Assembly: GCA_037133055.1 (NCBI GenBank)
Contig: JBAXOY010000001.1
Span: 32,236 to 96,235 of the forward strand
Direction: 5' to 3'
Length of the DNA: 64,000 nt
Origin: Chlamydiota bacterium
Lineage (GTDB): Bacteria > Auribacterota > Tritonobacteria > UBA1439
This document shows, piece by piece, positions 12,441 to 56,584 of this stretch (position 1 is its first letter; the number at the start of each line of letters is the position of its first letter). The notes below the pieces were generated by a model, which worked only from the letters and a program-made list of their open reading frames with translations, searched no databases and was not told where the DNA came from. The position numbers and the translations under genes were made by a program.

Positions 12441-12455
12441 ACCCCGGAGGGGTTC

Positions 12456-33205: not shown

Positions 33206-34453
33206 GTGAACCGCTATATCGCCTACCACATCGTCGGCATCTTCGTCCTCCTCTGCTTCTCCTTCTTCTTCTCCTGCACCGAAACCACCCTCTTCTCCCT
33301 CTCCCCGTTCCAGGTGAAAAAGCTCTCGCGCGGCAGGCGGGGCACCCTCATCTCCTGGCTCCTCGCCAACCCCCGCTGGCTCCTGACCTCGATACTCATC
33401 GGCAACATGTTCGTGAACATTTTCTCCTCGACGCTCGGGGAATCCCTCCTCCGGACCGCCTTCGGCGATGAGGGGACCGTGCTGGCGATTTTCATCATGA
33501 CCCTCGCCATCCTGGTCATGGGAGAAGTCACTCCGAAGACAATCGCCATCCAGTGCAACACCCGCCTTGCGCCCGTGGTCGCCCCGGGCATCAAGCTCAT
33601 CGGATCCCTGCTCTACCCGGTCCGCCAGGCGGTCCTCCGCATCTCGGACCGGCTCATCGGCCTCGTCACCCCCGTCGTCGCGGCTGAGCATGCGGTCACC
33701 GAGGACGAGATAAAGACCGCGATCAGGATCGGCTCCCGGGAGGGGGTCGTGGACACGCGCGAGAAGGCGATGATCCAGGGGGTCTTCGATTTCGCAACCC
33801 GCCGGGTCACGACGCTCATGCGCCCCAGGAAGGAGATCACCGCCTTCGAGGTCGACCGGCCCCTTCCGGAAATCGAGGAGGCGATCCGCCGGAACGGCTA
33901 CTCCCGCATCCCCGTCTACGAGAAGAATCTCGACAACATCATCGGCATACTCTACGCGAAGGACCTCCTGGGCCCGCGCGGGCGGGCGCCGGGCGCCGAG
34001 CTCAGGGGACTCCTCAGGCCCGCGTACTTCGTCCCGGAGACAAAGTACGCCCCATCCCTGCTCAGGGAGTTCAGGCGCAGGAAGATTCACCTCGCGGTGG
34101 TCGTGGACGAGTACGGGGGTGTCGCCGGCATCGTCACGCTCGAGGACCTGATCGAGCAGATCATCGGGGAGATGCGCGACAAGGGCGAGCCGGCGGCGCC
34201 GCTCTTCCAGCAGCTCGGGAAGAACAGCTTCAAGGTCAGGGCCCGGATGAAGATCGCCGAGTTCAACGGGATCTTCGGCACCGACCTCAAGGACGAGGGG
34301 AACACCACCATCGGCGGCTTCCTCACCGCCCGCGCCGGCAGGATACCCCCCGAGGGGGCCCGCATGCGGCACGGCGGCCTCCTCTTCACCGTGTCGGCGG
34401 CCCAGAAAAACAGGATCCGCGAGGTCCTCGTGAGCCGGGAGGCGCCCCGATGA
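33206..34453 (+). CDS. CNNM/HlyC-CorC family transporter (DUF21 + CBS pair + CorC_HlyC)
   Basis: Canonical domain order. GTG start. Confidence 0.8.
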   Translation: MNRYIAYHIVGIFVLLCFSFFFSCTETTLFSLSPFQVKKLSRGRRGTLISWLLANPRWLLTSILIGNMFVNIFSSTLGESLLRTAFGDEGTVLAIFIMTLAILVMGEVTPKTIAIQCNTRLAPVVAPGIKLIGSLLYPVRQAVLRISDRLIGLVTPVVAAEHAVTEDEIKTAIRIGSREGVVDTREKAMIQGVFDFATRRVTTLMRPRKEITAFEVDRPLPEIEEAIRRNGYSRIPVYEKNLDNIIGILYAKDLLGPRGRAPGAELRGLLRPAYFVPETKYAPSLLREFRRRKIHLAVVVDEYGGVAGIVTLEDLIEQIIGEMRDKGEPAAPLFQQLGKNSFKVRARMKIAEFNGIFGTDLKDEGNTTIGGFLTARAGRIPPEGARMRHGGLLFTVSAAQKNRIREVLVSREAPR

Positions 34454-35694
34454 TCCTCGCCGGGGTCGCGGTCATCCTGATCTGCCTGCTTTTCCAGGCG
34501 TTCTTCGCCGGGTCGGAGATGGCGGTCATCTCCTGCAACCGCCTTAAGATCCGCCACAGGGCGGAGCTCGGGGAGCGGAGGGCGCGGATCATCCAGCGGT
34601 TCCTCGACGAGCCGCGGAACCTGCTCGCCACCACCCTTGTCGGCTACAACGTCTCCGTGGTCATCGGCTCCTGCATCCTCAACAACATGGTCTCCCATTT
34701 TGCGCCGAAGAACACCGAGAACTTTTTCTCCCTCGCCGTCTACTGGCCCTTCGTTTTGATCGTGGGACAGATCATCCCCATGGCCTACGGGCGGCAGCAC
34801 GCCAACACGTTCTGCTTCACCTGCGCGCGCCCGCTCCGCGCCGCCTACTTCGCCCTTTTCCCCCTCGTCTTCACGGCCTCCCTCCTGGGGAGGGGCATCA
34901 CCAGGATATTCACCCGGGGGCGGTCGAAGAAGAACCCGTTCGTGACCAAGGAGGAGATCGAGCTCCTCGTCAAGGAGAGCCACGAATCGGGCGCCCTCCG
35001 GAGAGAGGAGAAGGAGATGATCGGGGAGATCTTCCGCTTCGGCGAGACCACGGTCCGGGAGGCGATGGTCCCGCTCATCGACGTGACGGCCGCGCCGGAG
35101 TCGGCGACCGTCGGGGAGCTCCTCCGCCTTGTCGCCGAGATCGGCCACTCGCGCATCCCCATCTACCGCGAGCGGATAGACCGGATCATCGGGATCATCA
35201 ACGCCACCGACCTCGCCGGGGTCCCGGAGGAGACGAGGGCCGGGGAGCTCATCCGCCCCCCCCGCATCATCCCCGAGTCCGCCTCGCTCGAGACCGTGCT
35301 CGCCGATCTCCAGGGCGCGGGGAGGCACATCGCGGTCGTCATGAACGAGTACGGCGGCGCCTCGGGCATTCTCACCATGGAGGACATCGTCGAGGAGATC
35401 GTGGGCGAGATCGACGACGAATATGACACCGAGTCGGCCGCCGAGTGGCGCAGGGGCGGGGACTCGATCGTCGTGGACGGGCGGATGCGCGTCGAAAAGT
35501 TCAACACAATCTTCGACCAGCGCCTGCCCCGCGGCGTGGCCGAGACGATGGCGGGGTTCGCGACGGACCTTTTCGGGAGGATCCCCGCACCCGCGGACGA
35601 GATCGGTTACGAGCACTTAAAATTCCGCGTCATCGAGGCGGACGACCGCCGGGTGCGGGCGATCGAGGTTCGGGGGATACGGGAGTCGCATTAG
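34450..35694 (+). CDS. CNNM/HlyC-CorC family transporter, tandem paralog
   Basis: Same architecture. ATGA overlap with preceding paralog. Stop codon TAG is the first 3 nt of the MITE-like element. Confidence 0.8.
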   Translation: MILAGVAVILICLLFQAFFAGSEMAVISCNRLKIRHRAELGERRARIIQRFLDEPRNLLATTLVGYNVSVVIGSCILNNMVSHFAPKNTENFFSLAVYWPFVLIVGQIIPMAYGRQHANTFCFTCARPLRAAYFALFPLVFTASLLGRGITRIFTRGRSKKNPFVTKEEIELLVKESHESGALRREEKEMIGEIFRFGETTVREAMVPLIDVTAAPESATVGELLRLVAEIGHSRIPIYRERIDRIIGIINATDLAGVPEETRAGELIRPPRIIPESASLETVLADLQGAGRHIAVVMNEYGGASGILTMEDIVEEIVGEIDDEYDTESAAEWRRGGDSIVVDGRMRVEKFNTIFDQRLPRGVAETMAGFATDLFGRIPAPADEIGYEHLKFRVIEADDRRVRAIEVRGIRESH

Positions 35695-35973
35695 GAGCCT
35701 GTCCGAGTAATGGGCTCTGTCGCGCCGCCTGCCGGTTGCGAGCGGATCAAGGCGCGAGGCCGAAGGCGTACTCAGCGCCGTACGCTGAGGCCGGAGCAAC
35801 GCCGAGCCGCGACGCAACCGGCGGCGGCCCGAAGGGTTTCGGCGGCGGGCAGCCGTCTGCGGCGTTACGGCTTCCTCGACGATGGGCAGGACATCGCCTT
35901 CGTCGCCGCGCCTTGCATCCGGCCCCCCGGCGCTCGAAATGCGTCGAGATCCATTACTCGGACAGACTCCTAG
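35692..35973. mobile_element. MITE-like palindromic element, copy 1 (282 bp)
   Basis: Terminal inverted repeats TAGGAGCCTGTCCGAGTAATGG... and ...CCATTACTCGGACAGACTCCTAG. GC-rich interior with hairpin GTACTCAGCGCCGTACGCTGAGG. Confidence 0.6.
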
Positions 35974-37591
35974 CCCCGAGGCGCCCCTCGCGCGCGAGCC
36001 GCGCGAGATCCCCCGGCGCGATGTCATAGACAAGGTAGGCATGCGCCACGTGCCCCACCGGCTCGAAATTCTCCCTCAGCCACCGGTAGCGCTCGGGGAG
36101 AAACACCCCCGTGAGCAGGTTCACCCCGACGACCACCCTCCCCTCCGAGGGCTTCTCGGGATTCACGATCACGCCGGGGTGATCCTTGACGTACCGCCTC
36201 AGGTACCAGCCGCCCTGCCCCCAGTCGATGTTCGAATCCGCCAGTATTCTGTAGCAGCGGGTGCGATCGGGGACGAGTTCGTTGAAATACGGGAGGAAGT
36301 GGGGATACCACGAGAGGACCGATGCCCCAAGCCAGACGAGCGCGCAGGCGAGCGCAGTCCGGCGCAAAGCGCCGAACTCGTCCCACCCCTTGAGGAGGCT
36401 GCCGCAGAAGATGATGAGCGGCGGGAAGGCGAAAAGAAAATAGCGTATCCCTACCTGGGTCTTGAAGAAGAATCCGAACCAGACGAGGGCGGCGGCGGGC
36501 GGGACAAGGAGGAATGCCTCGGCGCCGGGGAAGTCGAACCGCTCCCGGCGGCACAGGTACGCGGCAAGCGCCGCCCACAGGCACGCCTGGACGGCGAGCG
36601 GGACCTTGTACAGGAACGCGAAAAGGTAGTAGCCGGTGAACCCGACGCCCCGCGGGTGCAGCCTGCCGAAGAGATACGGGTTCCCCGAGACCCCGCCCAT
36701 TTCCTCGTAGTGCTTCGACCAATCAAGGCCCTCGAGGTAGGGATACGGCAGCGGGAGCGGCAGCCGGTTGAGGATCCCGGCCCTCGATTGGATCGCATGG
36801 GAGAGGGCGCTCTTGAACTCATACGCCCCGAACGGCGTGCCGCTCCCCTCGAAGAGGAACCCGGCGTTGACGACGGCCGCGCTCACCGCCGCAAAAAAGA
36901 ACGCCCATCCGGTAAAAACAGCCGCGCGGGAGGCGAGCCCGCGGAAATCCCTCTTCGCGATAAGGGCGAAGAGTGCCCGCGCGTGCCGCACGGCGAGGAT
37001 GACTAGAAACACCGGGTAGAGGAGTATCGCGGCGTGCTTGGTGAGCTGGGCGAGCCCGAGCGTGAGCGCGCTCGCCGCCCCGCTCACCCGCCCCGGCCTC
37101 TTCTCGAACCGCCAGAAATAATACAGCGCGACCGTCATCGCGCAGGCCGCATACAGGTCGGTGGTGACGAGCTGTCCGTGCGCGATGAAGTTCGGCTCGA
37201 ACGCGTACAGGGCGAGGGAGAAGAGGCCGGCGGCCGGCCCGTACAGCTCCCGCGCCCACCGGTAGACGAAGACCCCGAGGAGCAGGGCGGCGAGCACCGT
37301 GACGTATCTCCCCGTCTTCCGATCGCGAAGGAACCGCCGCGCCGCGCCTCCGCCGATCAGCGGGGCGAGCATATCCCCGGTCGCGCGGGGGACGGCATTG
37401 AGGGCCGAAACGGGCATTGTCGAGTCCGTGAACCGTTTCGCGGTGTGGTCCTTGAGTATCTGGAGTCCATACCGGTAATGGTACGGCTCGTCGTAGGTGA
37501 GAGTGAGATGCCGGGCACTCAGGACCGAGAGGATCAGCAGCGCGCCCAGGATGGCCGCCGCGGCGGCACGGGAGGATCGGAGGGGCATCAT
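35954..37591 (-). CDS. Glycosyltransferase family 39 (ArnT/PMT-like) membrane protein
   Basis: Polytopic N-terminal domain with GT-C features. Last residues ...GARSLSE and stop TAA are encoded by the right TIR of the MITE-like element. Confidence 0.7.
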   Translation of the reverse strand: MMPLRSSRAAAAAILGALLILSVLSARHLTLTYDEPYHYRYGLQILKDHTAKRFTDSTMPVSALNAVPRATGDMLAPLIGGGAARRFLRDRKTGRYVTVLAALLLGVFVYRWARELYGPAAGLFSLALYAFEPNFIAHGQLVTTDLYAACAMTVALYYFWRFEKRPGRVSGAASALTLGLAQLTKHAAILLYPVFLVILAVRHARALFALIAKRDFRGLASRAAVFTGWAFFFAAVSAAVVNAGFLFEGSGTPFGAYEFKSALSHAIQSRAGILNRLPLPLPYPYLEGLDWSKHYEEMGGVSGNPYLFGRLHPRGVGFTGYYLFAFLYKVPLAVQACLWAALAAYLCRRERFDFPGAEAFLLVPPAAALVWFGFFFKTQVGIRYFLFAFPPLIIFCGSLLKGWDEFGALRRTALACALVWLGASVLSWYPHFLPYFNELVPDRTRCYRILADSNIDWGQGGWYLRRYVKDHPGVIVNPEKPSEGRVVVGVNLLTGVFLPERYRWLRENFEPVGHVAHAYLVYDIAPGDLARLAREGRLGARSLSE

Positions 37592-41179: not shown

Positions 41180-41243
41180 AGGATCCGCAGGGGCGCCTCC
41201 CGGCGGTGACACGTGGGGGGGACAGCGCATCACGTTGCGCCGC

Positions 41244-41765
41244 CTACCATCTCGGCGGGGAGACGCCCGGAGGAAGGGATTTGCCGTCGCGCGTGGTCTC
41301 CTCGGAGAGCTGCATGTATTGCTTCACGCGCCATCCAGTGGGAGTCTTAATCAGCATAGCGCTCCACCGGCTGACGGTTTGATACTTGTATTCCATGTCC
41401 GCCTTGAGCCTGAAGTTGATCGTTGTCACATAGGTGATGCTCGCGCGCGGAACCTCGACCTCCGCTTCGAGGAGCTTATAATTCGCTTGCATAGAGGCTA
41501 TCTTCCCGCAATCCTTATCCGCCTTCTCCTTCCACTTCTCGATGGTCATGGTTGTCCCGTCGGCGTATCGCAGAGTTGCCTCTGGAATGGCAATAGCGGT
41601 GATCTCATCCAAATCCATTCCGCCACGGTGGTTGAAGCCCCCCGCCGCGGCGTCCAAAAGGGCTTGGATATCTGTCCGGGCCGTCGAATCCTGGGCCCAT
41701 CCGGGAGGGAGAACAATTCCCGTCGCCAGAACGCCCGCCAGAACCGCCGCCGAAAATTTTTTCAT
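41244..41765 (-). CDS. Hypothetical secreted protein (NTF2/SnoaL-like size and composition)
   Basis: Signal peptide. Lower local GC than surroundings. Confidence 0.35.
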   Translation of the reverse strand: MKKFSAAVLAGVLATGIVLPPGWAQDSTARTDIQALLDAAAGGFNHRGGMDLDEITAIAIPEATLRYADGTTMTIEKWKEKADKDCGKIASMQANYKLLEAEVEVPRASITYVTTINFRLKADMEYKYQTVSRWSAMLIKTPTGWRVKQYMQLSEETTRDGKSLPPGVSPPRW

Positions 41766-41845
41766 TCCGTATCTCCATTACTCCGACACACCGGGAGTAT
41801 ACCCAAAAGCGCCGCCGCGCGCCGTAATTAATATTCCGGGCAGGG

Positions 41846-42082
41846 CTAATATGTGAAAAGGTCCCCGAGGGTGTAGTTCCTGCCCGAGGCCCTGTTCATC
41901 GCTTCGAGGATCCTGCGCTGGATGTGAGGCGTCAGCCGCCTGCCCTTGCAAGCCCGGGATACCATCTTGTGGGTAAGCTGTTCCGTCGACGCCGCCACGA
42001 GATCATGGGGCTTCAGGCCGCGCCCGGCCATGACCCGCGCGATCGGCTGCGCGCCGAGATCCCGCCCGCTTTCGGCACCCAT
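41846..42082 (-). CDS. Hypothetical small protein
   Basis: ORF only. No family recognised. Confidence 0.2.
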   Translation of the reverse strand: MGAESGRDLGAQPIARVMAGRGLKPHDLVAASTEQLTHKMVSRACKGRRLTPHIQRRILEAMNRASGRNYTLGDLFTY

Positions 42083-42140
42083 CCCATGCCTCCCTCCCCG
42101 GCCTCGTACGCCCCTCGCGCGCGGTCGCGCATTGAGGCGG

Positions 42141-42314
42141 CTACATGGCGGGTTGTGCTACCGGCTTTTCGGTTTTCCAGATGGGGACTCCCAGCACCTT
42201 GACCTGATGCTTCTTCTCCTTCTTATTGGTTTTCGTCTTGTCGCTCACCAGCGCGCACCCCGCCAGTGAGACGAAGAGCACGCAGAGCACCGCCGACGCC
42301 GTTATCCTTCTCAT
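42141..42314 (-). CDS. Small lipoprotein
   Basis: MRRITASAVLCVLFVSLAGC lipobox followed by a Lys-rich tail. Confidence 0.35.
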   Translation of the reverse strand: MRRITASAVLCVLFVSLAGCALVSDKTKTNKKEKKHQVKVLGVPIWKTEKPVAQPAM

Positions 42315-42428
42315 TCCCCTACCCCCTTTCCCGTGCGTCCCGGACTCTTCCGATGTGGCATCCGAGGGCACTCACGGGCACCGCTGCAACCCGCCGCCGG
42401 TCGTGTCCCGCCGAACCCGGGAAGGCAC

Positions 42429-43109
42429 TCATCCAGAGAGAGAAAAATCCCATCCCATTTCAACCGCCAGCCAATGCGGGAGGAGCAGTATCGAACGCGA
42501 GTACTCCACGCCCGCCTTTTCTATCCGACCCTTGATCGCCTCGGTGAACCGGCGTGCCGACGCCACCACGGACCCTATCACCACCGGAGCGGGGCGTGCG
42601 GATTCCGGGTCGTGTGCGGCGCGGCAGGAACGCGGATGCGAACGGACGAAGTGCGTCCGGCAGACGACCGGTCTCACGGGATAGGCGATGCAGGAGCCGT
42701 GCACCAGCAGCGGGCAAAAATGGTCGCGCGCGGGAATATCCGTCCGCGTCCCGACCCTCGCCGCGGGATATCTCCCCGGCATGGAATTGTCCCACTCATG
42801 CCATTGCCATGTTCGCATGCGGAGCTCGCGTATCAGGGCTCGCGGCATTTCCCGCCTGATATAGCGCGCGAGGGTATGGGCCTCCGCGCTGTTCGTCATG
42901 ATAAGGTACCGGCAGCAGTGGGGACAGCCCGATGTGCACGGCGGGATGACCTCCTCTTCGCGACACAGCCGATCCAGTTCTCGCGCAATCGCCGCATCCA
43001 GTGATGCGTACACGCCCGTGACGAATTTTTCCTGCGGCGTGATCGGGATGCCGGCCGCAGATTTCCCGGCGCGTACACCGGCCTTGCGGCCCTTGATCAT
43101 GGTCGTCAT
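42429..43109 (-). CDS. YkgJ-family zinc/iron-chelating Cys-cluster protein (UPF0153)
   Basis: CTSGCPHCC…C cluster typical of PF03692. Confidence 0.55.
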   Translation of the reverse strand: MTTMIKGRKAGVRAGKSAAGIPITPQEKFVTGVYASLDAAIARELDRLCREEEVIPPCTSGCPHCCRYLIMTNSAEAHTLARYIRREMPRALIRELRMRTWQWHEWDNSMPGRYPAARVGTRTDIPARDHFCPLLVHGSCIAYPVRPVVCRTHFVRSHPRSCRAAHDPESARPAPVVIGSVVASARRFTEAIKGRIEKAGVEYSRSILLLPHWLAVEMGWDFSLSG

Positions 43110-43190
43110 CCCCGCTTCTCCGGGAAGGACCCCGGACATGTTTCGGGATCAATCGTGCATTTTCAACAAGATAACGCGACCCCGATTCAA

Positions 43191-44315
43191 TCAAACAAGA
43201 TGCTTGATGAAACACCTTCTCCGCTTATGCTGTCGCTTATCAAAGTATTTCCACTGCTCCCGGACATGCCTGTTCGTCTCGAGTTCCGGATTTGATTCGA
43301 CCCTGATGATGCCGAATGCATTAAACGCCTCATGCATCTTCTGGATCACCACCGCATTCACGCCCTTGCCCTGGTATTCGGACCTCACTGCCATCAAATA
43401 GAGGTCCGCCTGGTCATTTTTCCGGAGTGCGCGCATGATATGGATGAATCCGCACGGGAACAGTCTTCCCCCCGCCTTCTGGAGCGCCCTCGACAGCGAG
43501 GGGATCGCGATGCCGAACGCGACCATGCGGTTGTTCTTGTCAAGCACCACCGGCGCGAATGCCGGGGTGATGAAGTTGAAATACTTGTGTATGTACGCAT
43601 CGACCTGACGTTCCGTCAACGGCGCCGCGGCGTACTGGTACTGGTATTCATCCTCGATCACACGGAAGAGATCCCTGGCATACGGCAGCAGCTCTTTTCT
43701 GTTTCGCACCTCCAGCGTGTGCAGCGCATAGCGCCGCAGCACCACATCGGCAATCCTGGAGATTTTCTCATGGGGTTTGAGCGGGCCCACCAGCTCGTAT
43801 TCCACCCAGTCGGCATCTTTTACATATCCCAGTTTCTCCATATGCGCCGCGTAGTAGGGGTGGTTATAGATCGTGGCCAGTGTGCCGAGTTCGTCGAACC
43901 CCTCTACCAGCATGCCCTCCGGATCGAGGTTGGCGAAACCCAGGGGTCCGTGCACCTCGGTCATGCCCGTCGACCGCGCCCATGACTCGACCGTCGTCAG
44001 CAGGGCCTCCGACACGGCCGCATCGTCGACAAAGTCGATCCAGCCGAACCGCATCGCGCGCCGCTTCCACTTCCGGATGTACAGCCGGTTGAGTATGCCC
44101 GCGATACGGCCGACCATGCGGCCCCGGCGGTACGCCAGCCAGTACCTCGCCTCGCAATTTTGGAAGGCGGGATTCTTGTCCCTGCGGAGGGTGTGGTACT
44201 GATCCATGAAGAGGGGAGGGACCCAATTCGGGTTGTCGCGGTACAGCGTATGGGGAAAGCGGATGAAGGATTTCAACTCCTTCCGGGTAACGACTTCCCG
44301 TACCTGCACGTCCAT
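43191..44315 (-). CDS. GNAT-like two-domain acyltransferase (Fem/BioF2-like)
   Basis: Two GNAT-like halves. Family resemblance only. Confidence 0.45.
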   Translation of the reverse strand: MDVQVREVVTRKELKSFIRFPHTLYRDNPNWVPPLFMDQYHTLRRDKNPAFQNCEARYWLAYRRGRMVGRIAGILNRLYIRKWKRRAMRFGWIDFVDDAAVSEALLTTVESWARSTGMTEVHGPLGFANLDPEGMLVEGFDELGTLATIYNHPYYAAHMEKLGYVKDADWVEYELVGPLKPHEKISRIADVVLRRYALHTLEVRNRKELLPYARDLFRVIEDEYQYQYAAAPLTERQVDAYIHKYFNFITPAFAPVVLDKNNRMVAFGIAIPSLSRALQKAGGRLFPCGFIHIMRALRKNDQADLYLMAVRSEYQGKGVNAVVIQKMHEAFNAFGIIRVESNPELETNRHVREQWKYFDKRQHKRRRCFIKHLV

Positions 44316-44377
44316 GGTGTCACTCTTCAAGGCGGCCGGTCCTGCCCGGCGGTATCGTCGGGGTGAGGCCGCGATGA

Positions 44378-44650
44378 TCATATGCCGATGGTGCTCAACG
44401 CGTCTATCACCCGCCCCACGGCCATCGTCAGGGAGAGGTGCGACGCCTCGAAGTGCCGGGCGGATTCCGTGAGTTTTTCGAGAAACTGCTGGTGCCGATG
44501 CGCCGGGATTTCCCCGCCGCCGTCGATGAGCGTTTCGATTTCATCCAGCATGCCCTGGATGCGCTCGCGGACGCCGGCATCGACCGGCCGGGCCTTCCGG
44601 AGTTCGGCACGGAGTTCATGGATCGTTGTGCGAAGCCTTTGCTCCTTCAT
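44378..44650 (-). CDS. DUF4404-like small protein
   Basis: 90 aa, helical, LRxxLxxL N-terminus. Confidence 0.4.
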   Translation of the reverse strand: MKEQRLRTTIHELRAELRKARPVDAGVRERIQGMLDEIETLIDGGGEIPAHRHQQFLEKLTESARHFEASHLSLTMAVGRVIDALSTIGI

Positions 44651-45192
44651 GCGCTATCCCTTTCCTGTCCCGCGGCCACGCAGTCGACCTGCGGGCTGTA
44701 GACGACCCTATTCTCCATCTCCTCCCTCATCTCGCGCAATGCCAATCCGGCGTCATACTCCGCATTGAACATGAAGGGCTTCCCATCGAGGATATAACGG
44801 TAGATGAAGCAATCCGTCACGGGGGTGGGGATTTTCAGCAGGTCTGCGGGGCTGATCCATTCCAGAACGCCCTCATTGCAGCCGGGCGGTTCCCGGCGGT
44901 CCACATCCGCGATGTAGACAAAGCAGATCCAGTTGTATTCCGCCGGCGAGCTCTCCACCAGGACCCCGCAATAGCGCGCGTCCGTGATCTCAATCCCCGT
45001 CTCCTCGCGGGTCTCCCGTATCACCGCGTCACGCGGGCTCTCGAACGGGTTGATCTTCCCTCCCACCGGCGTGTACATCCCCTTGTTCGGGTCTCTGTAC
45101 CTCTTGAGAAGAAGGTACCGGTCCCCCGATCTCAGGATGCAGAGAACCGCGGGCTGCTTGTGGCCGTGGGGAACGAACACGGGCGTCTCCAT
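44647..45192 (-). CDS. NUDIX hydrolase
   Basis: Nudix box GGKINPFESPRDAVIRETREETG. Start at METPVF. The extension encoded by the MITE-like copy was rejected. Confidence 0.75.
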   Translation of the reverse strand: METPVFVPHGHKQPAVLCILRSGDRYLLLKRYRDPNKGMYTPVGGKINPFESPRDAVIRETREETGIEITDARYCGVLVESSPAEYNWICFVYIADVDRREPPGCNEGVLEWISPADLLKIPTPVTDCFIYRYILDGKPFMFNAEYDAGLALREMREEMENRVVYSPQVDCVAAGQERDSA

Positions 45193-45208
45193 TCTCCAAA
45201 GGGTGCAA

Positions 45209-45261
45209 GGAGCCTGTCCGAGCAATGGATCTCGACGCCCACTACTCGGACAGGCTCCTAG
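45209..45261. mobile_element. MITE-like palindromic element, copy 2 (53 bp hairpin derivative)
   Basis: GGAGCCTGTCCGAGCAATGGATCTCGACGCCCACTACTCGGACAGGCTCCTAG. 14-bp perfect stem. Confidence 0.6.
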
Positions 45262-45343
45262 GATATCAAATAATCCGCCGGGGTGTACCCGCGCGCACGG
45301 AATTGATTACCGGCACGTGAACGGATTCATTATACTATCTTCC

Positions 45344-46930
45344 ATGTGGGAAGTCCCATGTTTAATGCTCGCTTCCTTTTTATGCGCCGCGGCGCCCGGG
45401 GCATCCCCCGCGGCATTGACGGGCGCCGGCGATGGAGAGACCATGCGATTCGTGATCGACGATATGCGCCTCGAGGCGGAGGCGCTCATCCTTGAGCAGG
45501 GTGTGCGCTCCTGGGAGAACCGCGTCTACGGCGACCAGGTGGACATCGCCCAGACGTACGCGGGACACGAGAGACTCTTCAGTCCCGGGGCGATCGCGGC
45601 GGTCGAGCGGGCGATCGGGGCCGCGGCGGAGCCGAGGGATAAGAAGGCCCTCCGCTACTTCACGCGCTACCTGCTCTCGGAGCAGATCGACAAGGCCGTG
45701 GCGCCCCTGAGCGACAGGATCCGCAACACCGAGTCGGGCTCGGAGACAGTCGTGGACGGGGGGAAGGTCCCCTACCCCCAGCTCGCCGTCCTCCTCGCCA
45801 CCGAGGCCGACTACGCGAAGCGGCAGCGGATCTCCGACGCCGCCCTCCCCGTGCTCGCGAAGATCGAGCCCGACGGGGTCGAAAAGGAGGAGAAAAGCCG
45901 GGCGCTCGCGCGCGCGCTCGGCTTCGACTCCTACAACGCCCTGAGCGAGGAGCTCCGGTCGTTCTCCCTCGACGCGCTCGCCCGGGACTGCGAAACAATC
46001 CTCGCCACGACGGAGCCCGCCTACGCAACGCTGCTCAAAAAGGTGACCCCCGAGTTCATCGGCGTTCCCGTCGAGAAGCTCCGGCGGTGCGACATCGCCC
46101 GGATGTTCCAGCTTGACCGGTACAAGGGCGGTTTCCCCGCCGCGGGGCTGATGCCGGCGGTCTCCTCCACGCTCGGGGGGATGGGAATCGACCTGAGGGA
46201 GCAGAAGAACATCCTCATCCACGACGAGCCCCTGCCGAAGAAGAATCCCCGCGCGGCCTGTTTCGGCCTGAAGGTTCCAGACGACATACGCCTCACCGTC
46301 AAGCCGACCGGGGGCGTTCCGGACTACGAGACGCTCCTGCACGAGATGGGGCACGCCCAGCATTTCGCGAACACGCGGACCGACCATTTCGAGTTCGCGC
46401 AGCTCGGGGACAACACGGTGACGGAGGCGTACGCATTCCTCTTCGAGGAGCTGATGGACGACCCGGCGTGGGTGCGGGAGCACACCGCCCTCCCCCCCGC
46501 CGATCTGGAGGCCTACGGCGAGTTCCGGAGATTTTCACGGCTCTATTTCGCCCGCCGCTACGCCGCGAAAATACTCTACGAGCGAGAGCTCCACTCGGGG
46601 GCGTCCGATCCGAGGGAGATCTACCGGAAGACGCTCTCCCGCGCCTACGGGTTCCCCCTGGACGGGAGGGACGCCGCGCGCTACCTGAGCGACGTGGACG
46701 ACTACTACTATGCGGCGGACTATCTCCGCGCCTGGTTCCTGAAGGCGCAGATCGAGAAGGCGCTCAAAGACAAGTTCGGCGAACGGTGGTTCAAAAATCC
46801 CCGGACAGGGGCGTTTTTGAAGTCGTTGTGGCGCTACGGCCAGGAGCTGAACGGCGACGAGCTCGCGAGGCATCTCGGCTATGCGGGCCTCACACCTGCG
46901 TTGTTCATACACAATCTACTGGGAGAGTGA
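45344..46930 (+). CDS. Secreted zinc metallopeptidase, M3-like (HEMGH)
   Basis: Signal peptide. HEMGHAQH zinc motif. Size and composition consistent with the oligoendopeptidase family. Confidence 0.6.
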   Translation: MWEVPCLMLASFLCAAAPGASPAALTGAGDGETMRFVIDDMRLEAEALILEQGVRSWENRVYGDQVDIAQTYAGHERLFSPGAIAAVERAIGAAAEPRDKKALRYFTRYLLSEQIDKAVAPLSDRIRNTESGSETVVDGGKVPYPQLAVLLATEADYAKRQRISDAALPVLAKIEPDGVEKEEKSRALARALGFDSYNALSEELRSFSLDALARDCETILATTEPAYATLLKKVTPEFIGVPVEKLRRCDIARMFQLDRYKGGFPAAGLMPAVSSTLGGMGIDLREQKNILIHDEPLPKKNPRAACFGLKVPDDIRLTVKPTGGVPDYETLLHEMGHAQHFANTRTDHFEFAQLGDNTVTEAYAFLFEELMDDPAWVREHTALPPADLEAYGEFRRFSRLYFARRYAAKILYERELHSGASDPREIYRKTLSRAYGFPLDGRDAARYLSDVDDYYYAADYLRAWFLKAQIEKALKDKFGERWFKNPRTGAFLKSLWRYGQELNGDELARHLGYAGLTPALFIHNLLGE

Positions 46931-47704
46931 ATGAGATCTTTCATGGAAGTCGCGGTGCGCGCCGCGCGCGAGGCGGGCGCGATCATCAGGCGTGATTTCG
47001 GCAGGCCCTCCGGCGTGAGCTTCAAGGCCAGGATGAACCCGGTCACGGAAACCGATCTGGCGGCGGAGCGCGCGGTCGTATCCGTCCTCGCGCGGGAGTT
47101 CCCATCCCACGACATCCTGACGGAGGAATCGGCTCAGGCCCCGCGCCGCTCGGAGTACCTCTGGGTCATCGACCCGATGGACGGCACCGTCAACTTCACG
47201 CACAACTACCCGTGCGTCTGCGCGTCGGTGGGGTTGATGCGCGGGGATGAAATTATCGCCGGCGCCGTGTTCGACCCGATCCACGGCGAGCTCTTCGCCG
47301 CCGGGAAGGGCGATGGGGCAACGCTGAACGGGTCGCCCCTTCGCGTCTCCTCAGTCCCCTCGCTCGAGGGGAGCCTCCTCTGCACCGGTTTTCCCTACCG
47401 GCTCGTGGAGAACCCCGGGGATACGTTCCGTGTCTTTGAGCGCATCTCTCTTCTCGTTCAGGGCGTCAGGCGGGACGGCTCCGCGGCGCTCGACATCTGC
47501 TATGTGGCGGCGGGGCGGTTCGAGGGATTCTGGGAGCGGGAACTCAGGCCCTGGGACACGGCGGCGGGCGTGCTGATCCTCAGGGAGGCGGGAGGCCGGG
47601 CGACGGATTTCGCGGGGAAGGAGTTCGACCCGTTCATGAAGGAGATCGCCTGCACGAATAGCCTCGTCCACGAGGAGATGCTCGGCCTCTTCCGGACGGC
47701 GTGA
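46931..47704 (+). CDS. suhB: Inositol monophosphatase family protein
   Basis: EESAQ…WVIDPMDGT…DPIHGE motifs. Confidence 0.85.
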   Translation: MRSFMEVAVRAAREAGAIIRRDFGRPSGVSFKARMNPVTETDLAAERAVVSVLAREFPSHDILTEESAQAPRRSEYLWVIDPMDGTVNFTHNYPCVCASVGLMRGDEIIAGAVFDPIHGELFAAGKGDGATLNGSPLRVSSVPSLEGSLLCTGFPYRLVENPGDTFRVFERISLLVQGVRRDGSAALDICYVAAGRFEGFWERELRPWDTAAGVLILREAGGRATDFAGKEFDPFMKEIACTNSLVHEEMLGLFRTA

Positions 47705-47834
47705 CCCCCCGGGAAGGCCCCGGGTCCCGACCCTTTTCTACGAGAGGAACTGAATGCTCAAGGGGCGGCTCGGATATTGTTTTTATGCTAGAATTCGCAC
47801 GCTGAAAACGCCTGACCACGGAGCGACCTTCCCG

Positions 47835-49298
47835 ATGAAGCCGGCATCCGGCCGCATCGCGCGGTTCCTGGCATGCGCCGCGCTGGCGGCGATGTGCGGC
47901 GGAGGGGCCCGCGCCGAGCAGGGGGATGCAACCGCTCCCCCCCTCCCCCTCCAGGGGGGAGGGGATGCGATGCGCAGGAGCGGAGACGCCGCGCCGGTCC
48001 TCACCTTCGACGAGTGCGTCCGGAGGGTGCTCGCCTGGTACCCGGTTTTGAAGAAGCAGCACGCGCGCGTCGACGAGGCGCTCGCGGAGCGCGCGCTCGC
48101 GGTGAGCGGCCTCCTCCCCCGCGGGCGGGGCGTCGCCTCCGTGACGGCCACCGACAGCCCGCTGAACGTCTTCGGGATGCTGCTCAACCAGCGCTCCGTC
48201 ACGATGCGGGATTTTGAGCCGGACAACGTCAACAATCCGGGGCGCCGGACGAACTTCAACTTCGGCCTCCAGGGCGAGATGCCCCTCTTCAACGCATTCC
48301 AGACCTTCTATGCCATCCGCGCGGCGAAGCTCTCCGTCGAGGCATCCAGGGGGCAGGAATCGTTCACCGGGATGGAGGCCTCCCTCCTCGCCGCGGAGGC
48401 GTACCTGCGGCTCCTGCTCTGCGAGAGGACCTATGCCCTCGCGGAGCGTGTGCACGCGGACGGGGAGAAGGATATCCGGGAGGCGGAGAGCCTCAAGGAG
48501 CGGGGGATGATACTCGGCGCGGACTTCTACGCCGCGAAGGTGATTCAGGGCGGCATCACGCAGACGGAGCGGAGGTGCGACGCCCGGCGACGCGCGGCGC
48601 GGCTCCTGCTGAACATCCTTATGAACGAGGACCCCGCGAGGGACTACGCGATCGAGGGCGCGCTCCCCTCCGGCACGCGCGAGGCGAAGCCGCTCGCCGA
48701 CTGGCTCTCCGCGGCCGAAAAGGCGCGCCCGGACCTCGCCGCGGTCCGGGCGGGCGTCAAGGCGCAGGAGGCCATCCTTTCGAAGGAAAAGACCTCGATA
48801 CTCCCCCGCGTCAGCGCCCTCGGCGCCGTGGAGGAGAACACGCGCGACATGCGGCACGGGGCGGGAAACTACACGATGGGGTTCGCGGGGAATATGGATT
48901 TTCTCGACCCGTCGTATCTCCCGAGGATACAGCGGGCGCGCGGGCGCATGGAACAGCTCATACAGGACGAGGCGATCCTCATGGACTCGATCCGGCGGTC
49001 CATCTCGGAGGCGTACGAGAACTACGGGGCGGTCAGGTTCAATCTCCCGGTCCTCGCGCAGGCGGGGGCCGACGCCCGCGAGGCGGTGAACCTCACCGCC
49101 CCCCTCTACCGCGAGGGGAGAAAGTCGATCAAGGACCTTCTCGAGATAAGGAACATGTCCCTCGGCATGGATTCGGCCGCGGACCAGCTCCGCTACGACT
49201 CGGAGCTCGGGTATGCCACGCTGCTCTTCCTCTCGGGATCGCTCGGGGAGCCGGAGATCAGGGAGATGGGGCGGCGGATAGCGGGAGCGGGGCAATGA
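47835..49298 (+). CDS. TolC-family outer membrane efflux protein
   Basis: Signal peptide MKPASGRIARFLACAALAAMCGG. Duplicated OMF repeats. Confidence 0.7.
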   Translation: MKPASGRIARFLACAALAAMCGGGARAEQGDATAPPLPLQGGGDAMRRSGDAAPVLTFDECVRRVLAWYPVLKKQHARVDEALAERALAVSGLLPRGRGVASVTATDSPLNVFGMLLNQRSVTMRDFEPDNVNNPGRRTNFNFGLQGEMPLFNAFQTFYAIRAAKLSVEASRGQESFTGMEASLLAAEAYLRLLLCERTYALAERVHADGEKDIREAESLKERGMILGADFYAAKVIQGGITQTERRCDARRRAARLLLNILMNEDPARDYAIEGALPSGTREAKPLADWLSAAEKARPDLAAVRAGVKAQEAILSKEKTSILPRVSALGAVEENTRDMRHGAGNYTMGFAGNMDFLDPSYLPRIQRARGRMEQLIQDEAILMDSIRRSISEAYENYGAVRFNLPVLAQAGADAREAVNLTAPLYREGRKSIKDLLEIRNMSLGMDSAADQLRYDSELGYATLLFLSGSLGEPEIREMGRRIAGAGQ

Positions 49299-52200
49299 TG
49301 GGCACTGATCACGGCGGCGCGCTCGGGGGGATCGTCCGCTACTTCGCGGACTCGAAGCTCACCCCGCTCTTCATCATCGCCTCGCTCCTCATCGGCGCCT
49401 TCGCCGTCGCGAACCTCCCGCGGGAGGAGGAGCCGCAGATCTCCGTGCCGATGTTCGACATCCTCGTCTCCTACCCCGGGGCGAGCGCCAAGGAGATGGA
49501 GCAGCGGATCGTCAACCTCGGCGAGAGGAAGCTCTGGGAGATCACGGGGGTCGAATACATCTACTCGACCGTCGAGCCCGATCAGGCCCTCATCATCGTC
49601 AGGTTCAAGGTCGGCGAGGACCCGGAGAAGAGCCTGATCAAGCTCTACACGAAGGTCTACTCGAACCTCGACCTGATGCCTCCGGGGGCTTCCCAGCCGC
49701 TCATCAAGCCGCGCTCGATCGACGACGTGCCGGTCCTCGCCCTCACCTTTCACGGCGGCGGCCGCGACCCCCTCGTTCTCCGGAAGACCGTCGCGCGGGT
49801 GCGGCAGGAGGTGAGCGCCGTCCCGGACGTTTCCGAGACGGTCATCACCGGGGGCAGGAAGCGGCAGTTCCAGGTCTTCTTCGATGAGGCGAAGCTCGCC
49901 GAGCGCCTGATGAGCCCGCTTGAAATCGGCGCGCTCATACGGGGCACGAACGTCAGGCGCCCCGCCGGCCGCCTCGAGAGCCGGCCGAAGCTCATGGCGG
50001 TCGAGTCGAACGCGTTCTTCCGCTCGAAGGCCGATCTCGAGAACCTGGTCGTGGGCGTGAGCGCGGGCGGGAGCGTGCATGTGAAGGATGTGGCGCGCGT
50101 GGCGGACGGCCCCGACGAGGACGAGCGCTTCGTATCCATCCGGGGCGGCGCCGCGGCCCCGCCCGGAGAAAGGGCGGAGCAGGCGGCGGTGACCCTCTCG
50201 ATCTCGAAGCGGAGGGGGACGAACGCGACGCGGCTCTGCAGGCAGGTCCTCGCGAAGGTCGAGGCGCTCAAGGGAACCGCCATACCCCCCGGGATCGCGT
50301 ACACGGTGACCCGCGACTACGGCGAGACCGCCGCGGAGAAATCCAACGAGCTCCTCCTGCACATGGCGATCGCCGTGGTCGGGGTGAGCATCCTCATCGC
50401 GGTGTCGCTGGGCATCTACGAGTCGGGCGTGGTGGCGGTGGCGGTCCCCGTGACCCTCGCCCTCACCCTCGCCTCGTTCTACTTCATCGGCTTCACCCTG
50501 AACCGCATCACCCTCTTCGCCCTCATCTTCTCCATCGGGATCCTCGTGGACGACCCGATCGTGGACGTCGAAAACATCGTGCGCCATCTCCGGATGCCGT
50601 CGAGCAGGGGGCGTCCCATCCTCGACGTGACGGTCGAGGCGGTGAACGAGGTGCGGAGCCCCCTCATCCTGGCGACGCTCGCCGTGATCGCGGCGATACT
50701 GCCGATGGCGTTCGTGCGCGGATTGATGGGCCCGTATATGCGCCCCATCCCGATCGGGTCGAGCATGGCGATGGCGTTCTCCATGGCGGTCGCGTTCATC
50801 GTGACGCCCTGGTCCGCCCTGAGGATCATGGGGTGGGCGCTCCGCAGGGGGAGGCTCAAGGGCCACGGCCGCGAGGAGCGCGAGGACCTGCTCACGCGCC
50901 TCTACCGGACCTCGATGAAGCCGATCGTGACCCGTCCGCGGCCCCGGCGCTGGTTCCTTCGCGCCCTTGCCGCCATGCTCCTCGCCGCCGCGGCCCTCGT
51001 GCCGCTCAAATGCGTGAAGCTCAAGATGCTCCCGTTCGACAACAAGAACGAGTTCCAGGTCGTGCTCGATATGCCCGAGGGGACGCCCGCGGAGAAGACG
51101 CGGGCCGTGATCGGTGAGATCGCCGCCCTGTGCGCCGCGGTGCCCGAGGCGACCGATATCGAGACCTACGTCGGCGCGAGCTCCCCCTATAATTTCAACG
51201 GCCTCGTGCGCCACTACTTCATGCGGGACCGGCCCCACCAGGCGGACCTCCAGGTCAACCTCGTCGGGAAGGGCTCGCGGAAGCGGCAGAGCCACGCAAT
51301 CGCCGACAGCGTCAGGCCCGCCATCCACGGGATCGTGCGCCGGGCGGGCGGACACGTCCAGGTCGCCGAGGTCCCTACCGGGCCCCCGGTGCTCTCGACG
51401 CTCGTCCTCGAGATCTACGGGCCGACGGTCGAGGGGCAGATCGAGCTGGCGGGCGAGATCGAGGCGCTCCTCGCGCGCACCCCCGGCATCACGGACATCG
51501 GCGCCTACGTCCAGGCCGGGGAGCCCCTGGCCCGCCTTTCCATCGACACCGAGAAGGCCTCCCTGAACGGGATCGACGTCTCCTCCATCGCGAACACGGT
51601 CACCGCCGCCCTTGCGGGCCAGGCGGCCGACCTCGCCCGCCTGCCCGACGAGTACGAACCGGTGGAGATCCTCCTGCGGCTCCCGAAGGAAAAGCGGGCG
51701 ACGCTGGATGCCGTGAAGCGGATCAGGCTTCTTTCCCGCTTCGGGCAGATGATCCCGGTGGGGGACCTCACCGCGACGGAGCCCCTGGCAAGGGACCGCG
51801 CGATCTACCACAAGAACCTCATGCGCGTCCAGTACGTCATCGCCGACGTCACCGGGGACCTCGCGAGCCCGGCGTACGCCATCCTGAAGCTCCGCCGGCA
51901 GGTCGCCGGCCTCCCCATCCCCGGAGCGCGCCCGGGCGGCTTGCGCCGCCTCGCGCAGTATTTCACCATGCAGCCGCCGGCCGCCGGGGGGTGGGCGGTA
52001 AAGTGGGACGGGGAATGGCAGATCACCTACGAGGTCTTCCGGGACATGGGGATCGCGTTCGCGGCCGTGCTCATCCTCATCTACATCCTCGTCGTCGGCT
52101 GGTTCCGGTCGTTCAAGACCCCGCTCGTCATCATGATCCCGATCCCCCTCTCCCTCATCGGCATACTCCCGGCGCACTGGATGGCGGGGGTGTTCTTCAC

Positions 52201-52519
52201 GGCGACCTCCATGATCGGGCTCATCGCCGGCGCGGGGATCGTGGTGCGGAACGCGATCATCCTCGTGGACTTCATCGAGCTCAGGATCTCGCACGGGATG
52301 CCGATCGAGGAGGCCGTGATCGACGCGGGGGCGAAGCGGTTCCGCCCGATGCTCCTCACCGCGGCCGCGGTGATCGTGGGCTCGTCGGTCATCCTCTTCG
52401 ATCCCATCTTCCAGGGGCTCGCACTCTCGCTCATGGCGGGGGAGATCGCCTCAACCCTCCTGTCGAGGACGGCGGTGCCGGTCTTCTACTACCTGATGAT
52501 GCGGAAGAAGGCGGTCTGA
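49295..52519 (+). CDS. RND efflux transporter (AcrB/CzcA superfamily)
   Basis: 12-TM RND architecture with two large periplasmic loops. ATGA overlap with the upstream OMF gene. 240-aa upstream extension rejected. Confidence 0.85.
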   Translation: MMGTDHGGALGGIVRYFADSKLTPLFIIASLLIGAFAVANLPREEEPQISVPMFDILVSYPGASAKEMEQRIVNLGERKLWEITGVEYIYSTVEPDQALIIVRFKVGEDPEKSLIKLYTKVYSNLDLMPPGASQPLIKPRSIDDVPVLALTFHGGGRDPLVLRKTVARVRQEVSAVPDVSETVITGGRKRQFQVFFDEAKLAERLMSPLEIGALIRGTNVRRPAGRLESRPKLMAVESNAFFRSKADLENLVVGVSAGGSVHVKDVARVADGPDEDERFVSIRGGAAAPPGERAEQAAVTLSISKRRGTNATRLCRQVLAKVEALKGTAIPPGIAYTVTRDYGETAAEKSNELLLHMAIAVVGVSILIAVSLGIYESGVVAVAVPVTLALTLASFYFIGFTLNRITLFALIFSIGILVDDPIVDVENIVRHLRMPSSRGRPILDVTVEAVNEVRSPLILATLAVIAAILPMAFVRGLMGPYMRPIPIGSSMAMAFSMAVAFIVTPWSALRIMGWALRRGRLKGHGREEREDLLTRLYRTSMKPIVTRPRPRRWFLRALAAMLLAAAALVPLKCVKLKMLPFDNKNEFQVVLDMPEGTPAEKTRAVIGEIAALCAAVPEATDIETYVGASSPYNFNGLVRHYFMRDRPHQADLQVNLVGKGSRKRQSHAIADSVRPAIHGIVRRAGGHVQVAEVPTGPPVLSTLVLEIYGPTVEGQIELAGEIEALLARTPGITDIGAYVQAGEPLARLSIDTEKASLNGIDVSSIANTVTAALAGQAADLARLPDEYEPVEILLRLPKEKRATLDAVKRIRLLSRFGQMIPVGDLTATEPLARDRAIYHKNLMRVQYVIADVTGDLASPAYAILKLRRQVAGLPIPGARPGGLRRLAQYFTMQPPAAGGWAVKWDGEWQITYEVFRDMGIAFAAVLILIYILVVGWFRSFKTPLVIMIPIPLSLIGILPAHWMAGVFFTATSMIGLIAGAGIVVRNAIILVDFIELRISHGMPIEEAVIDAGAKRFRPMLLTAAAVIVGSSVILFDPIFQGLALSLMAGEIASTLLSRTAVPVFYYLMMRKKAV

Positions 52520-52620
52520 TCCGCTCCCCTCTTTCGGCTTGCCGCATTCTGCCGGGCGGGTATAATAGGGGTGCTGCACGGGCATTCCCGCCCGCGCACC
52601 CCACACCACGGGCGCCGCGC

Positions 52621-55767: not shown

Positions 55768-55847
55768 GGGGACGGGTCTTCCCGGGAGGGGAGCTGAAAA
55801 ACCCCGCGCGGATCACTATCGGATGCACGGCAGGGAGGGTGTACACC

Positions 55848-56405
55848 ATGGCGAACGCAGTCGATCTCAGAAGGGGGGTGGCGATCCTGTACCAGGGAGC
55901 GCCGCATGTCATCACCGAGTACCAGCACGTCACGCCGGGAAACTGGCGCGCCTACGTGCAGGTTTCGATGCGCAATGTGAAGACGGGAAACTCGACGCAG
56001 GCGCGGTTCAGGACATCGGAGACCGTGGAGCTTGTCGATCTCGAGAGCCGCAAACTCCAGTACCAGTACCGCGACGGGGACGGCTACAACTTCATGAATC
56101 TCGAGGATTTCAGCACCGTCGTCCTTTCCCCCGCCGTCGTCGGCGAGGCCGCGCGGTATTTCAAGGAGGGCGACGAGATCAAGGGCCTCTTCCACGGCGA
56201 GGAGCCGATAGAGCTCGAACTCCCCACGAGCGTGGTGCTGAAGGTGGTGACGACCACGCCCGGCTTCAAGGGGGACTCGGTCAACAATCTTCAAAAGCCG
56301 GCGACGCTCGAGACGGGGTACGAGCTGAACGTGCCGCTCTTCATCAAGGAGGGGGAGATGGTCAAGGTGGACACGCGGACCGGGGGGTATCTGGGGAGGG
56401 AGTGA
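55848..56405 (+). CDS. efp: Elongation factor P
   Basis: Full-length three-domain EF-P similarity. GGGAGGG SD 7 nt upstream. Loop tip reads TPGNW rather than KPGKG. Confidence 0.85.
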   Translation: MANAVDLRRGVAILYQGAPHVITEYQHVTPGNWRAYVQVSMRNVKTGNSTQARFRTSETVELVDLESRKLQYQYRDGDGYNFMNLEDFSTVVLSPAVVGEAARYFKEGDEIKGLFHGEEPIELELPTSVVLKVVTTTPGFKGDSVNNLQKPATLETGYELNVPLFIKEGEMVKVDTRTGGYLGRE

Positions 56406-56407
56406 TT

Positions 56408-56433
56408 CAAATCCCAAAACCCAAATCCCAAAA
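56408..56433. repeat. (AAATCCC)~3 tandem repeat (locus f)
   Basis: CAAATCCCAAAACCCAAATCCCAAAAG. Begins 3 nt after the efp stop. Confidence 0.8.
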
Positions 56434-56505
56434 GAGGCTAAAAAGAACGGGGCCGTATGCACGTGGATGGCGCGCATGCGGCCCCGGATGCTTTTGAGCC
56501 CCTGT

Positions 56506-56584
56506 GGAGCCTGTCCAAGGTCCAAGTAATGGATCTCGACGCCAAGCCTCCGGGCCGCCGCCGGTTACTCGGACAGGCTCCTAG
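56506..56584. mobile_element. MITE-like palindromic element, copy 3 (79 bp)
   Basis: GGAGCCTGTCCAAGGTCCAAGTAATGGATCTCGACGCC…GGTTACTCGGACAGGCTCCTAG. Ends 2 nt before the dodecin stop codon. Confidence 0.6.

Follow-up and report, generated by a model that had tools for sequence, protein, structure and literature searches.

Miniature inverted-repeat transposable elements (MITEs) that lie at gene ends and remodel the neighbouring genes are well known. The Correia elements (CREE/NEMIS) of Neisseria are an example: palindromic MITEs of about 100-150 bp that have terminal inverted repeats (TIRs), duplicate a TA and settle at gene boundaries, where they are transcribed together with the neighbouring genes, form hairpins and can change the expression of those genes; no parent transposase is known for them. 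Here we analyse three short palindromic repeats, copies 1 to 3, in a 64,000-nt stretch of contig JBAXOY010000001.1 (positions 32,236 to 96,235) from an uncultivated bacterium of Candidatus Auribacterota, hereafter the window, which a sequence-only reading had described as a family of MITE-like elements. We are highly confident that these repeats are non-autonomous MITEs bearing 18-20-bp TIRs (GGAGCCTGTCCGAGTAAT) of an ISMno8-like clade of IS1182-family insertion sequences (ISs). They are not known to share sequence with the Correia elements and differ from them in that their parent family is identified; nor did the analysis yield signs in them of RNase III processing, IHF sites or promoters.

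IS1182-derived MITEs have already been reported from Methanosarcina (PMC3852290). Those of M. acetivorans derive from ISMac2 and measure 160-169 bp; likened by description, they too are non-autonomous, small and multi-copy, carry the TIRs of an IS1182-family IS and make a short or absent duplication, but their host is archaeal, their TIRs are 25-26 bp long and their direct repeats are 4 or 0 bp (PMC3852290), whereas the present family occurs in at least 15 bacterial phylum-level lineages. A second relative, IS1272 of Staphylococcus, belongs to the same IS family and transposes by a "stem-loop-replacing" mode in which a target palindrome is replaced and no duplication arises (PMC5678879). The targets here are also palindromic, being the 4-bp CTAG; in this case, however, insertion duplicates the central TA, and the sequence reconstructed for the site before insertion shows no loss. 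The closest known elements are ISMno8 and the ISMno38-like IS1182 elements of Methylobacterium nodulans ORS 2060, together with unnamed relatives in many metagenome-assembled genomes (MAGs). They share with the window elements an identical terminal sequence of 17-20 bp (GGAGCCTGTCCGAGTAA…) and the cTA…TAg flanks; they differ in encoding a transposase, while the window elements are 50-277 bp long, encode none and are unrelated in sequence to the full-length elements sampled beyond about 20-33 bp. The present elements are MITEs by every criterion that can be tested: small size with TIRs (277, 50 and 76 bp; TIRs of 18-20 bp), several dispersed copies with filled and empty sites (three copies in 64 kb, 23 metagenome stretches, empty sites for all three), a TA target-site duplication, lack of a transposase and of coding capacity, and TIRs shared with autonomous ISs (13 long elements among the matches listed, and ISMno8).

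Copy 1 (35694-35970, 277 bp) is the full-size form of the subfamily and a foldback palindrome; in the orientation shared with copies 2 and 3, it is read on the minus strand. It takes the form TA-GGAGCCTGTCCGAGTAATGG…CCATTACTCGGACAGACTCC-TA, with the left TIR GGAGCCTGTCCGAGTAATGG at 35694-35713 on the plus strand and the right TIR at 35951-35970, whose minus-strand sequence, GGAGTCTGTCCGAGTAATGG, has one mismatch. The flanking TA duplication occupies 35692-35693, where it coincides with the TA of the TAG stop codon that ends a CorC/HlyC transporter gene, and 35971-35972. Copy 2 (45209-45258, 50 bp, plus strand) is a minimal derivative consisting of two TIRs and a 10-nt loop, with the ends AA-GGAGCC…GGCTCC-TA (AA at 45207-45208, TA at 45259-45260). 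Copy 3 (56506-56581, 76 bp, plus strand) belongs to a 69-bp class to which a 7-bp tandem duplication has been added (GTCCAAG, 56513-56526); it has a G>A change in the left TIR and the ends GT-GGAGCCTGTCCAAG…CTCGGACAGGCTCC-TA (GT at 56504-56505, TA at 56582-56583). A search with the 14-mer GGAGCCTGTCCGAG, allowing up to two mismatches, gave nine matches in the window against 1.35 expected, a number reached in none of 100 shuffles. Six of the nine are the arms of the three inverted pairs, so that both this search and the letters at the ends bear out the TIRs described for each copy; the other three (18119, 33643 and 55088) have neither the TAAT extension nor the CTA flank and are at chance level. 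A family profile run over the 64-kb window with nhmmer found no copy beyond these three. The copies form a family by more than their termini: a subterminal GTAATGGATCTCGACGC is found at one end only in every copy, an asymmetry that reveals copy 1 to lie in the opposite orientation to copies 2 and 3, and GGGCCGCCGCCGGTT is common to copy 3 and the interior of copy 1. The TIRs of about 33 bp proposed by the sequence-only reading do pair over that length in copy 1, but only 18-20 bp are conserved across the whole family, the rest being a subfamily-specific extension.

The affiliation with IS1182 rests on the ends. The TIR 18-mer TACTCGGACAGGCTCCTA, scanned in GTDB genomes (one per species), occurs in at least 117 genome stretches, where about 20 would be expected by chance (an estimate from the collection size). 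The hosts of the matches listed represent 14 phylum-level lineages, or at least 15 when the Auribacterota of the window is counted: Acidobacteriota, Planctomycetota, Nitrospirota, Thermodesulfobacteriota, Alpha- and Gammaproteobacteria, Chloroflexota, Gemmatimonadota, Binatia, Verrucomicrobiota, Armatimonadota, Bacteroidota, Firestonebacteria and Eisenbacteria. When inverted arms were paired among these listed matches, 45 elements emerged, 32 of them 49-425 bp and 13 of them 1376-1627 bp long. The long elements (1.4-1.6 kb) each contain one open reading frame (ORF) of about 430-480 aa. Profile scans covered two of the 13, L075 and L013 (L-numbers are labels of the sequence stretches compared), whose transposases score 355.9 and 375.5 bits against the NCBIfam model NF033551 for the IS1182 family (cut-off 270) and also match Pfam DUF772, DDE_Tnp_1 and DDE_Tnp_1_6; membership in IS1182 is thus that of the parents, the window copies being devoid of genes. 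A tblastn search of plasmids led to an element of Methylobacterium nodulans named in RefSeq "IS1182-like element ISMno8", whose transposase is 64 % identical to that of L075. Its copy on pMNOD02 is 1468 bp long with the ends cTA-GGAGCCTGTCCGAGTAAG…GTTACTCGGACGGGCTCC-TAg, in short form cTA-GGAGCCTGTCCGAGTAA…CTCGGACGGGCTCC-TAg, and its flanks are as in the MITEs. Full-length and MITE forms coexist in single MAGs (L040/L090 with L051; L026 with L070). A full-length parent IS with the same ends, which the sequence-only reading had proposed to look for, thus exists in the IS1182 family, and the absence of further copies, which would have spoken against that reading, is contradicted by the genome stretches above and by 23 metagenome stretches described below.

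Across 219 distinct arms, conservation is 90 % or more at TIR positions 1-16 and 74-84 % at positions 17-18 (74-99 % over positions 1-18 as a whole) and falls to background by position 21; one arm per locus had been selected by the search pattern, so that these figures are subject to ascertainment. Among 11 full-length copies, the transposases mostly share no more than 42-68 % identity with one another. One TIR of 18-20 bp has stayed nearly unchanged across at least 15 phylum-level lineages while the transposases diverged to 42-68 % identity, and MITEs with unrelated interiors have arisen repeatedly on these ends. A search of the literature brought up no publication that mentions the TIR string or ISMno8, and this TIR family, its breadth over phyla and its occurrence in Auribacterota appear to be undescribed. 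The same ends bear on whether the repeats could be repetitive extragenic palindromes (REP/REPIN) moved by a RAYT transposase (Y1, IS200/IS605-like), or else regulatory palindromes of the host. Short GC-rich hairpin repeats at gene ends with no transposase nearby would suit such an origin, but the termini are identical to those of DDE elements of the IS1182 family, a TA duplication is present where REPINs make none, single arms are not themselves palindromic REP units, and the ends extend over at least 15 phylum-level lineages while orthologous sites in relatives are empty. In their ends, duplication and arms the repeats differ from REP/REPIN-RAYT systems, and we regard this origin as extremely improbable. 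The TIR 18-mer was also matched in three viral contigs of IMG/VR (L155-L157), in each case near a contig end, and these matches were uninformative; one of the three, of 16,450 nt, agrees in length and match position with contig L025 of Methylobacterium sp. B4 and is probably identical with it.

The flanks of the MITEs and of their parents point to a common target. Immediately outside the TIR, the 219 arms carry C (78 %), T (84 %) and A (94 %), and the sequence is random from position -4 outward, so that the elements read cTA-GGAGCC…GGCTCC-TAg. Because CTAG is a palindrome, such flanks do not tell duplication of 2 bp (TA) from duplication of 4 bp (CTAG). The outer bases differ in L008 (G-TA-G), L070 and L088 (C-TA-A) and copy 1 (T-TA-G), and L129 has a CA/CA duplication; these variant cases favour a 2-bp duplication of TA at a preferred C-TA-G target. 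For other IS1182 members, 4-bp or absent duplications are reported (PMC3281130, PMC3852290). TA/TA flanks are seen in most of 48 paired elements and in nine of 15 unbiased metagenome copies, and CA/CA in one. In the window, the duplication is perfect at copy 1 and imperfect on the left at copies 2 and 3. The window contains only ten CTAG tetramers against 200 expected from its base composition (observed/expected 0.05, about 20-fold depleted), and three of the ten are MITE junctions. TTAG and CTAA are likewise depleted (observed/expected 0.04-0.07), and YTAR tetramers number 36 in all. The scarcity of CTAG, together with TAG and TAA stop codons, is a sufficient explanation for the position of the copies at gene boundaries; in a GC-rich genome, such extreme scarcity would channel insertions into intergenic spacers and stop codons.

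Comparison with relatives, and the filled and empty sites that it yields, indicates how the window copies arrived. The orthologues of the CorC/HlyC transporter are 74-79 % identical and are labelled Candidatus Aureabacteria, that is Candidatus Auribacterota, of the Planctomycetes-Verrucomicrobia-Chlamydiae (PVC) group. Copy 1 lies between the convergent 3' ends of the gene for this CNNM/CBS/CorC_HlyC transporter (34450-35694, plus strand, Pfam) and a gene for a PMT_2-family glycosyltransferase of 545 aa (35954-37591, minus strand, Pfam). In three relatives (L118-L123, L147 and L149/L150) copy 1 is absent and the CorC and PMT_2 genes overlap convergently by 65 nt; the glycosyltransferases of L118, L147 and L149 have 558-560 aa. 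When 35694-35972 was removed in silico, the window became colinear with a relative and the glycosyltransferase extended to 560 aa, ending in …GGRPPR* as compared with …GTGPPR* in a 559-aa orthologue. The target was the TA in the TAG that ends the transporter gene, and the insertion regenerated this stop codon. The present glycosyltransferase has lost 20 codons and takes its end from the right TIR, namely five codons (RSLSE) and a TAA stop at 35954-35956. The comparison thus shows a predicted ancestral glycosyltransferase of 560 aa whose gene overlapped the CorC gene by about 65 nt and was truncated at its 3' end by copy 1.

Copy 2 is absent from the 49-nt spacer between the NUDIX gene and a gene for a 550-aa protein in L147; L122 was considered as a second empty site and rejected, the NUDIX gene being missing there. 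Copy 3 lies between the convergent genes for EF-P (55839-56405, plus strand) and dodecin (stop codon 56586-56588, minus strand) and is absent from the corresponding spacer of L151 and L152, in which a heptamer array and a GC hairpin are kept. Judged by these empty orthologous sites, the comparison shows all three window copies to be insertions, at a convergent gene end (copy 1), in a divergent intergenic region (copy 2) and at a 3' end (copy 3), the contexts that had been read from the sequence alone. A near-identical strain is represented in ENA ERZ1426829, with a CorC 100 % and an AP_endonuc_2 98 % identical to those of the window. Its CorC lies on a 2039-nt contig that stops about 120 nt beyond the CorC stop codon, as would be expected if the assembly had broken within copy 1. 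Its dodecin/EF-P spacer is 173 nt long and that of the window 180 nt; the excess of 7 nt matches the length of the tandem duplication in copy 3. These features fit a strain that may carry copy 1 as well as a copy 3 lacking the duplication.

Copy 2 is 16 nt upstream of the NUDIX start codon (ATG, 45192-45190, minus strand); on its other side, the divergent plus-strand gene starts 85 nt away (ATG, 45344). As it sits just before the GGAGA ribosome-binding site of the NUDIX gene, it either puts a 50-nt hairpin into the NUDIX leader or parts the gene from its old promoter; the conserved -10 region of the divergent gene lies downstream of copy 2 and is untouched. A scan for consensus promoters and terminators found none at copy 1. 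At copy 2, a weak hybrid promoter-like site was noted at 45247-45274 (plus strand), in which CGGACA of the right TIR and AATAAT of the flank are separated by a 16-nt spacer (9 of 12 matches). Every TIR contains CGGACA, and a putative outward -35 element might in principle be supplied by the ends. Transcribed hairpins may act incidentally on the host, as RNA stem-loops at the 3' ends next to copies 1 and 3 and as part of the NUDIX 5' leader at copy 2. Elements of this kind alter gene ends often, as copy 1 does. In L144 (2313-2345) the ORF of a membrane protein can start at an ATG within the TIR-adjacent GTAATGGATC, and in L143 (2227-3792) an ORF of 521 aa reads through an entire MITE. The loss of a 20-codon glycosyltransferase tail and an insertion 16 nt before a start codon are the concrete cases provided by the window.

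The subfamily to which the window copies belong was followed with the 21-mer CCRAGYAATGGATCTCGACGC, taken from their subterminal sequence and scanned against a metagenome collection. It occurs in 23 stretches, all of them MITEs or solo arms with no full-length IS among them; L144, whose arms lie 2 kb apart, was considered as a full-length parent and rejected, its left arm being a chance match in a gene and its right arm a solo arm abutting the membrane-protein gene. The matches fall into size classes of 69, 175-196 (about 177), 277 and 319 bp. Five 69-bp copies have an identical internal junction and different flanks, and in the class of about 177 bp, too, the same deletion junctions recur from locus to locus. 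Of the window copies, copy 3 falls into the 69-bp class, from which copy 2 differs by a further deletion of 19 bp. It could be supposed that each copy is the remnant of a full-length IS decayed in place and that the short forms were never mobile, since the short copies keep only IS-like ends and copy 3 is visibly decayed. The recurrence of identical junctions at different loci with different flanks means that the short forms transposed themselves; moreover, the 277-bp interior resembles neither transposase genes nor IS interiors and is yet conserved in length and sequence across genomes, and only empty sites are seen at orthologous positions of relatives. Decay in place is therefore rejected as very unlikely. 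We propose instead that internal deletion of the 277-bp form would have given rise to the shorter elements of 50, 69-76 and about 177 bp, which went on to spread by their own transposition.

Beyond the window, the full-size metagenome copies L130, L132, L140 and L143 are 82-92 % identical to copy 1. The contigs with the 21-mer range from 46 to 69 % GC, a span that suggests different hosts; the full-size copy in L143 (49 % GC) shares 91.5 % identity with copy 1, and a solo arm in L146 (46 % GC) is 85 % identical over 62 nt. More distant members come from Acidobacteriota MAGs (L063, L087 and L041), which are 274 bp long and 65-68 % identical to copy 1 over their full length (69-75 % in local BLAST alignments); a 317-bp member, L029 (58 %), groups with them.

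The internal hairpin that had been ascribed to copy 1 is actually a foldback palindrome of the whole element, so the palindromic folding stands while its restriction to the interior does not. Folded as RNA, copy 1 reaches -172 kcal/mol on one strand (z = -8.4) and -177 kcal/mol on the other (z = -8.6). The hairpins of copies 2 and 3 also proved much more stable than shuffled controls (DNA fold z = -6.3 and -7.4 for copy 2, -2.9 and -5.1 for copy 3). Seven full-size members (62-95 % identity, 274-277 bp) have a common fold in which 93.9 % of cells are paired. Compensatory double changes affect 25 of 86 pairs, as compared with 2-7 in slid controls, and the covariation score is 0.283 against 0.04-0.065 in controls, a value reached in none of 500 shuffles, although the test rests on seven related sequences and such controls overstate its significance. 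A Y-shape as the unique fold was rejected: a single long hairpin of the left half with the right half is 88.9 % paired with 24 compensatory pairs and is the minimum-energy fold of several members. A strand-specific RNA was rejected as well, the reverse strand folding equally well and the counts of G·U and A·C showing no strand bias. No Rfam family matched anywhere in the window at the gathering threshold, nor in 35650-36020 at E <= 1. The interior is non-coding as claimed, with substitutions spread evenly over the codon positions (17, 18 and 20). An ORF of 87 aa that crosses copy 1 (35710-35973, from an ATG in the TIR to a TAG in the flank) was rejected as a small protein in view of this lack of codon-position bias and of frames that are not consistently kept; at this GC content such an ORF is expected by chance (an estimated 0.19 or so per frame).

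These features raise the question of whether the conserved foldback or Y-structure of the 277-bp form is itself under selection, for structure-dependent transposition or as a bidirectional RNA stem-loop used by the host. The fold kept in seven copies of Auribacterota type and from Acidobacteriota, with its 25 compensatory pairs out of 86, the constant length of 274-277 bp, the report that IS1272 of the same IS family targets palindromic stem-loops (PMC5678879), and the position of all three window copies in transcribed gene ends or leaders would be consistent with such selection. Both strands fold equally, which gives no sign of an RNA with a defined polarity, and a single hairpin does nearly as well, as for any foldback MITE whose halves evolve in concert. 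Furthermore, the derivatives of 50-76 bp have spread without the interior, which is thus not needed for mobility; no Rfam match appears even at E = 1; the empty sites in relatives indicate that the host does not need the elements; and only seven related sequences enter a test whose controls overstate significance. Selection on the structure is in our judgement unlikely. In its fullest form, the 277-bp element would be a horizontally travelling, structure-selected DNA module, for which copies about 85-92 % identical in contigs of 46-69 % GC might be cited, a doubtful interpretation. The reason proposed for such a module, that ISMno8-type transposases act on extruded hairpin or cruciform DNA or that the host can reuse a bidirectional RNA stem-loop, is similarly improbable; if true, action on hairpins or cruciforms would amount to a structure-dependent mode of DDE transposition. 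The element itself is a foldback DNA palindrome whose halves stay complementary, a pattern that may have come from selection, for example through a structure-dependent step of IS1182-type transposition, or from concerted evolution of the arms.

For the non-autonomous MITEs of the ISMno8-like clade that we favour, a mobilising activity has to come from outside. A tblastn search of the window with two IS1182 transposases returned nothing better than E = 0.026, which agrees with the statement of the sequence-only reading that no transposase gene is present in it. It is proposed that the elements would be mobilised in trans by an IS1182-family DDE transposase that recognises the TIRs alone and may be encoded elsewhere in the genome or have arrived transiently. 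Several observations weigh against the MITE interpretation. No autonomous IS with the subterminal sequence of the subfamily is found among the 23 metagenome matches to the 21-mer, and without a mobilising partner among them or in the window, the window copies may be fossils. The ends and the duplication of copy 1 are intact, but the duplications of copies 2 and 3 are imperfect (AA/TA and GT/TA) and the left TIR of copy 3 is damaged. Beyond about 20-33 bp, the MITE interiors are unrelated to the full-length elements sampled, so that an origin by deletion from an IS is deduced rather than directly seen. The choice of a 2-bp duplication over the published 4-bp one (PMC3281130, PMC3852290) is decided by a minority of informative cases only. 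The MITE interpretation leaves current concepts unchanged and is useful to the study of IS1182-family transposition; it also provides a checkable annotation, with the parent IS family and the relative ISMno8 named, for a repeat family in the poorly known Candidatus Auribacterota. Since contigs break at the elements, the family should be useful for repeat masking and MAG assembly.

The window contains other repeats. The heptamer AAATCCC/GGGATTT forms short arrays at gene ends in both orientations (10668-10702, 11948-11982, 12409-12443, 13317-13352, 13490-13527 and 56404-56432). The last lies just past the EF-P stop codon and is followed by a GC-rich hairpin with a T-run (56449-56495); it is conserved in place in L151 (about 2640-2700), where the neighbouring AP_endonuc_2 is 83 % identical. 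The heptamer array seems to be an intergenic motif that is specific to the lineage and has no relation to the MITE. Among the heptamer arrays, three direct repeats of about 105 nt (12456-13137, family D1), 66-75 % identical to the reference copy and spaced by 308 and 269 nt, may be tandem paralogous small genes or domains. Relative to the syntenic L122 (CorC 79 % identical), the window has extra blocks at 41186-42163, 42314-44382, 44635-45443 and 47686-52614, which include the NUDIX gene adjacent to copy 2 and a block of 4.9 kb; the NUDIX gene is present in L147, and gene content in this region is thus fluid.

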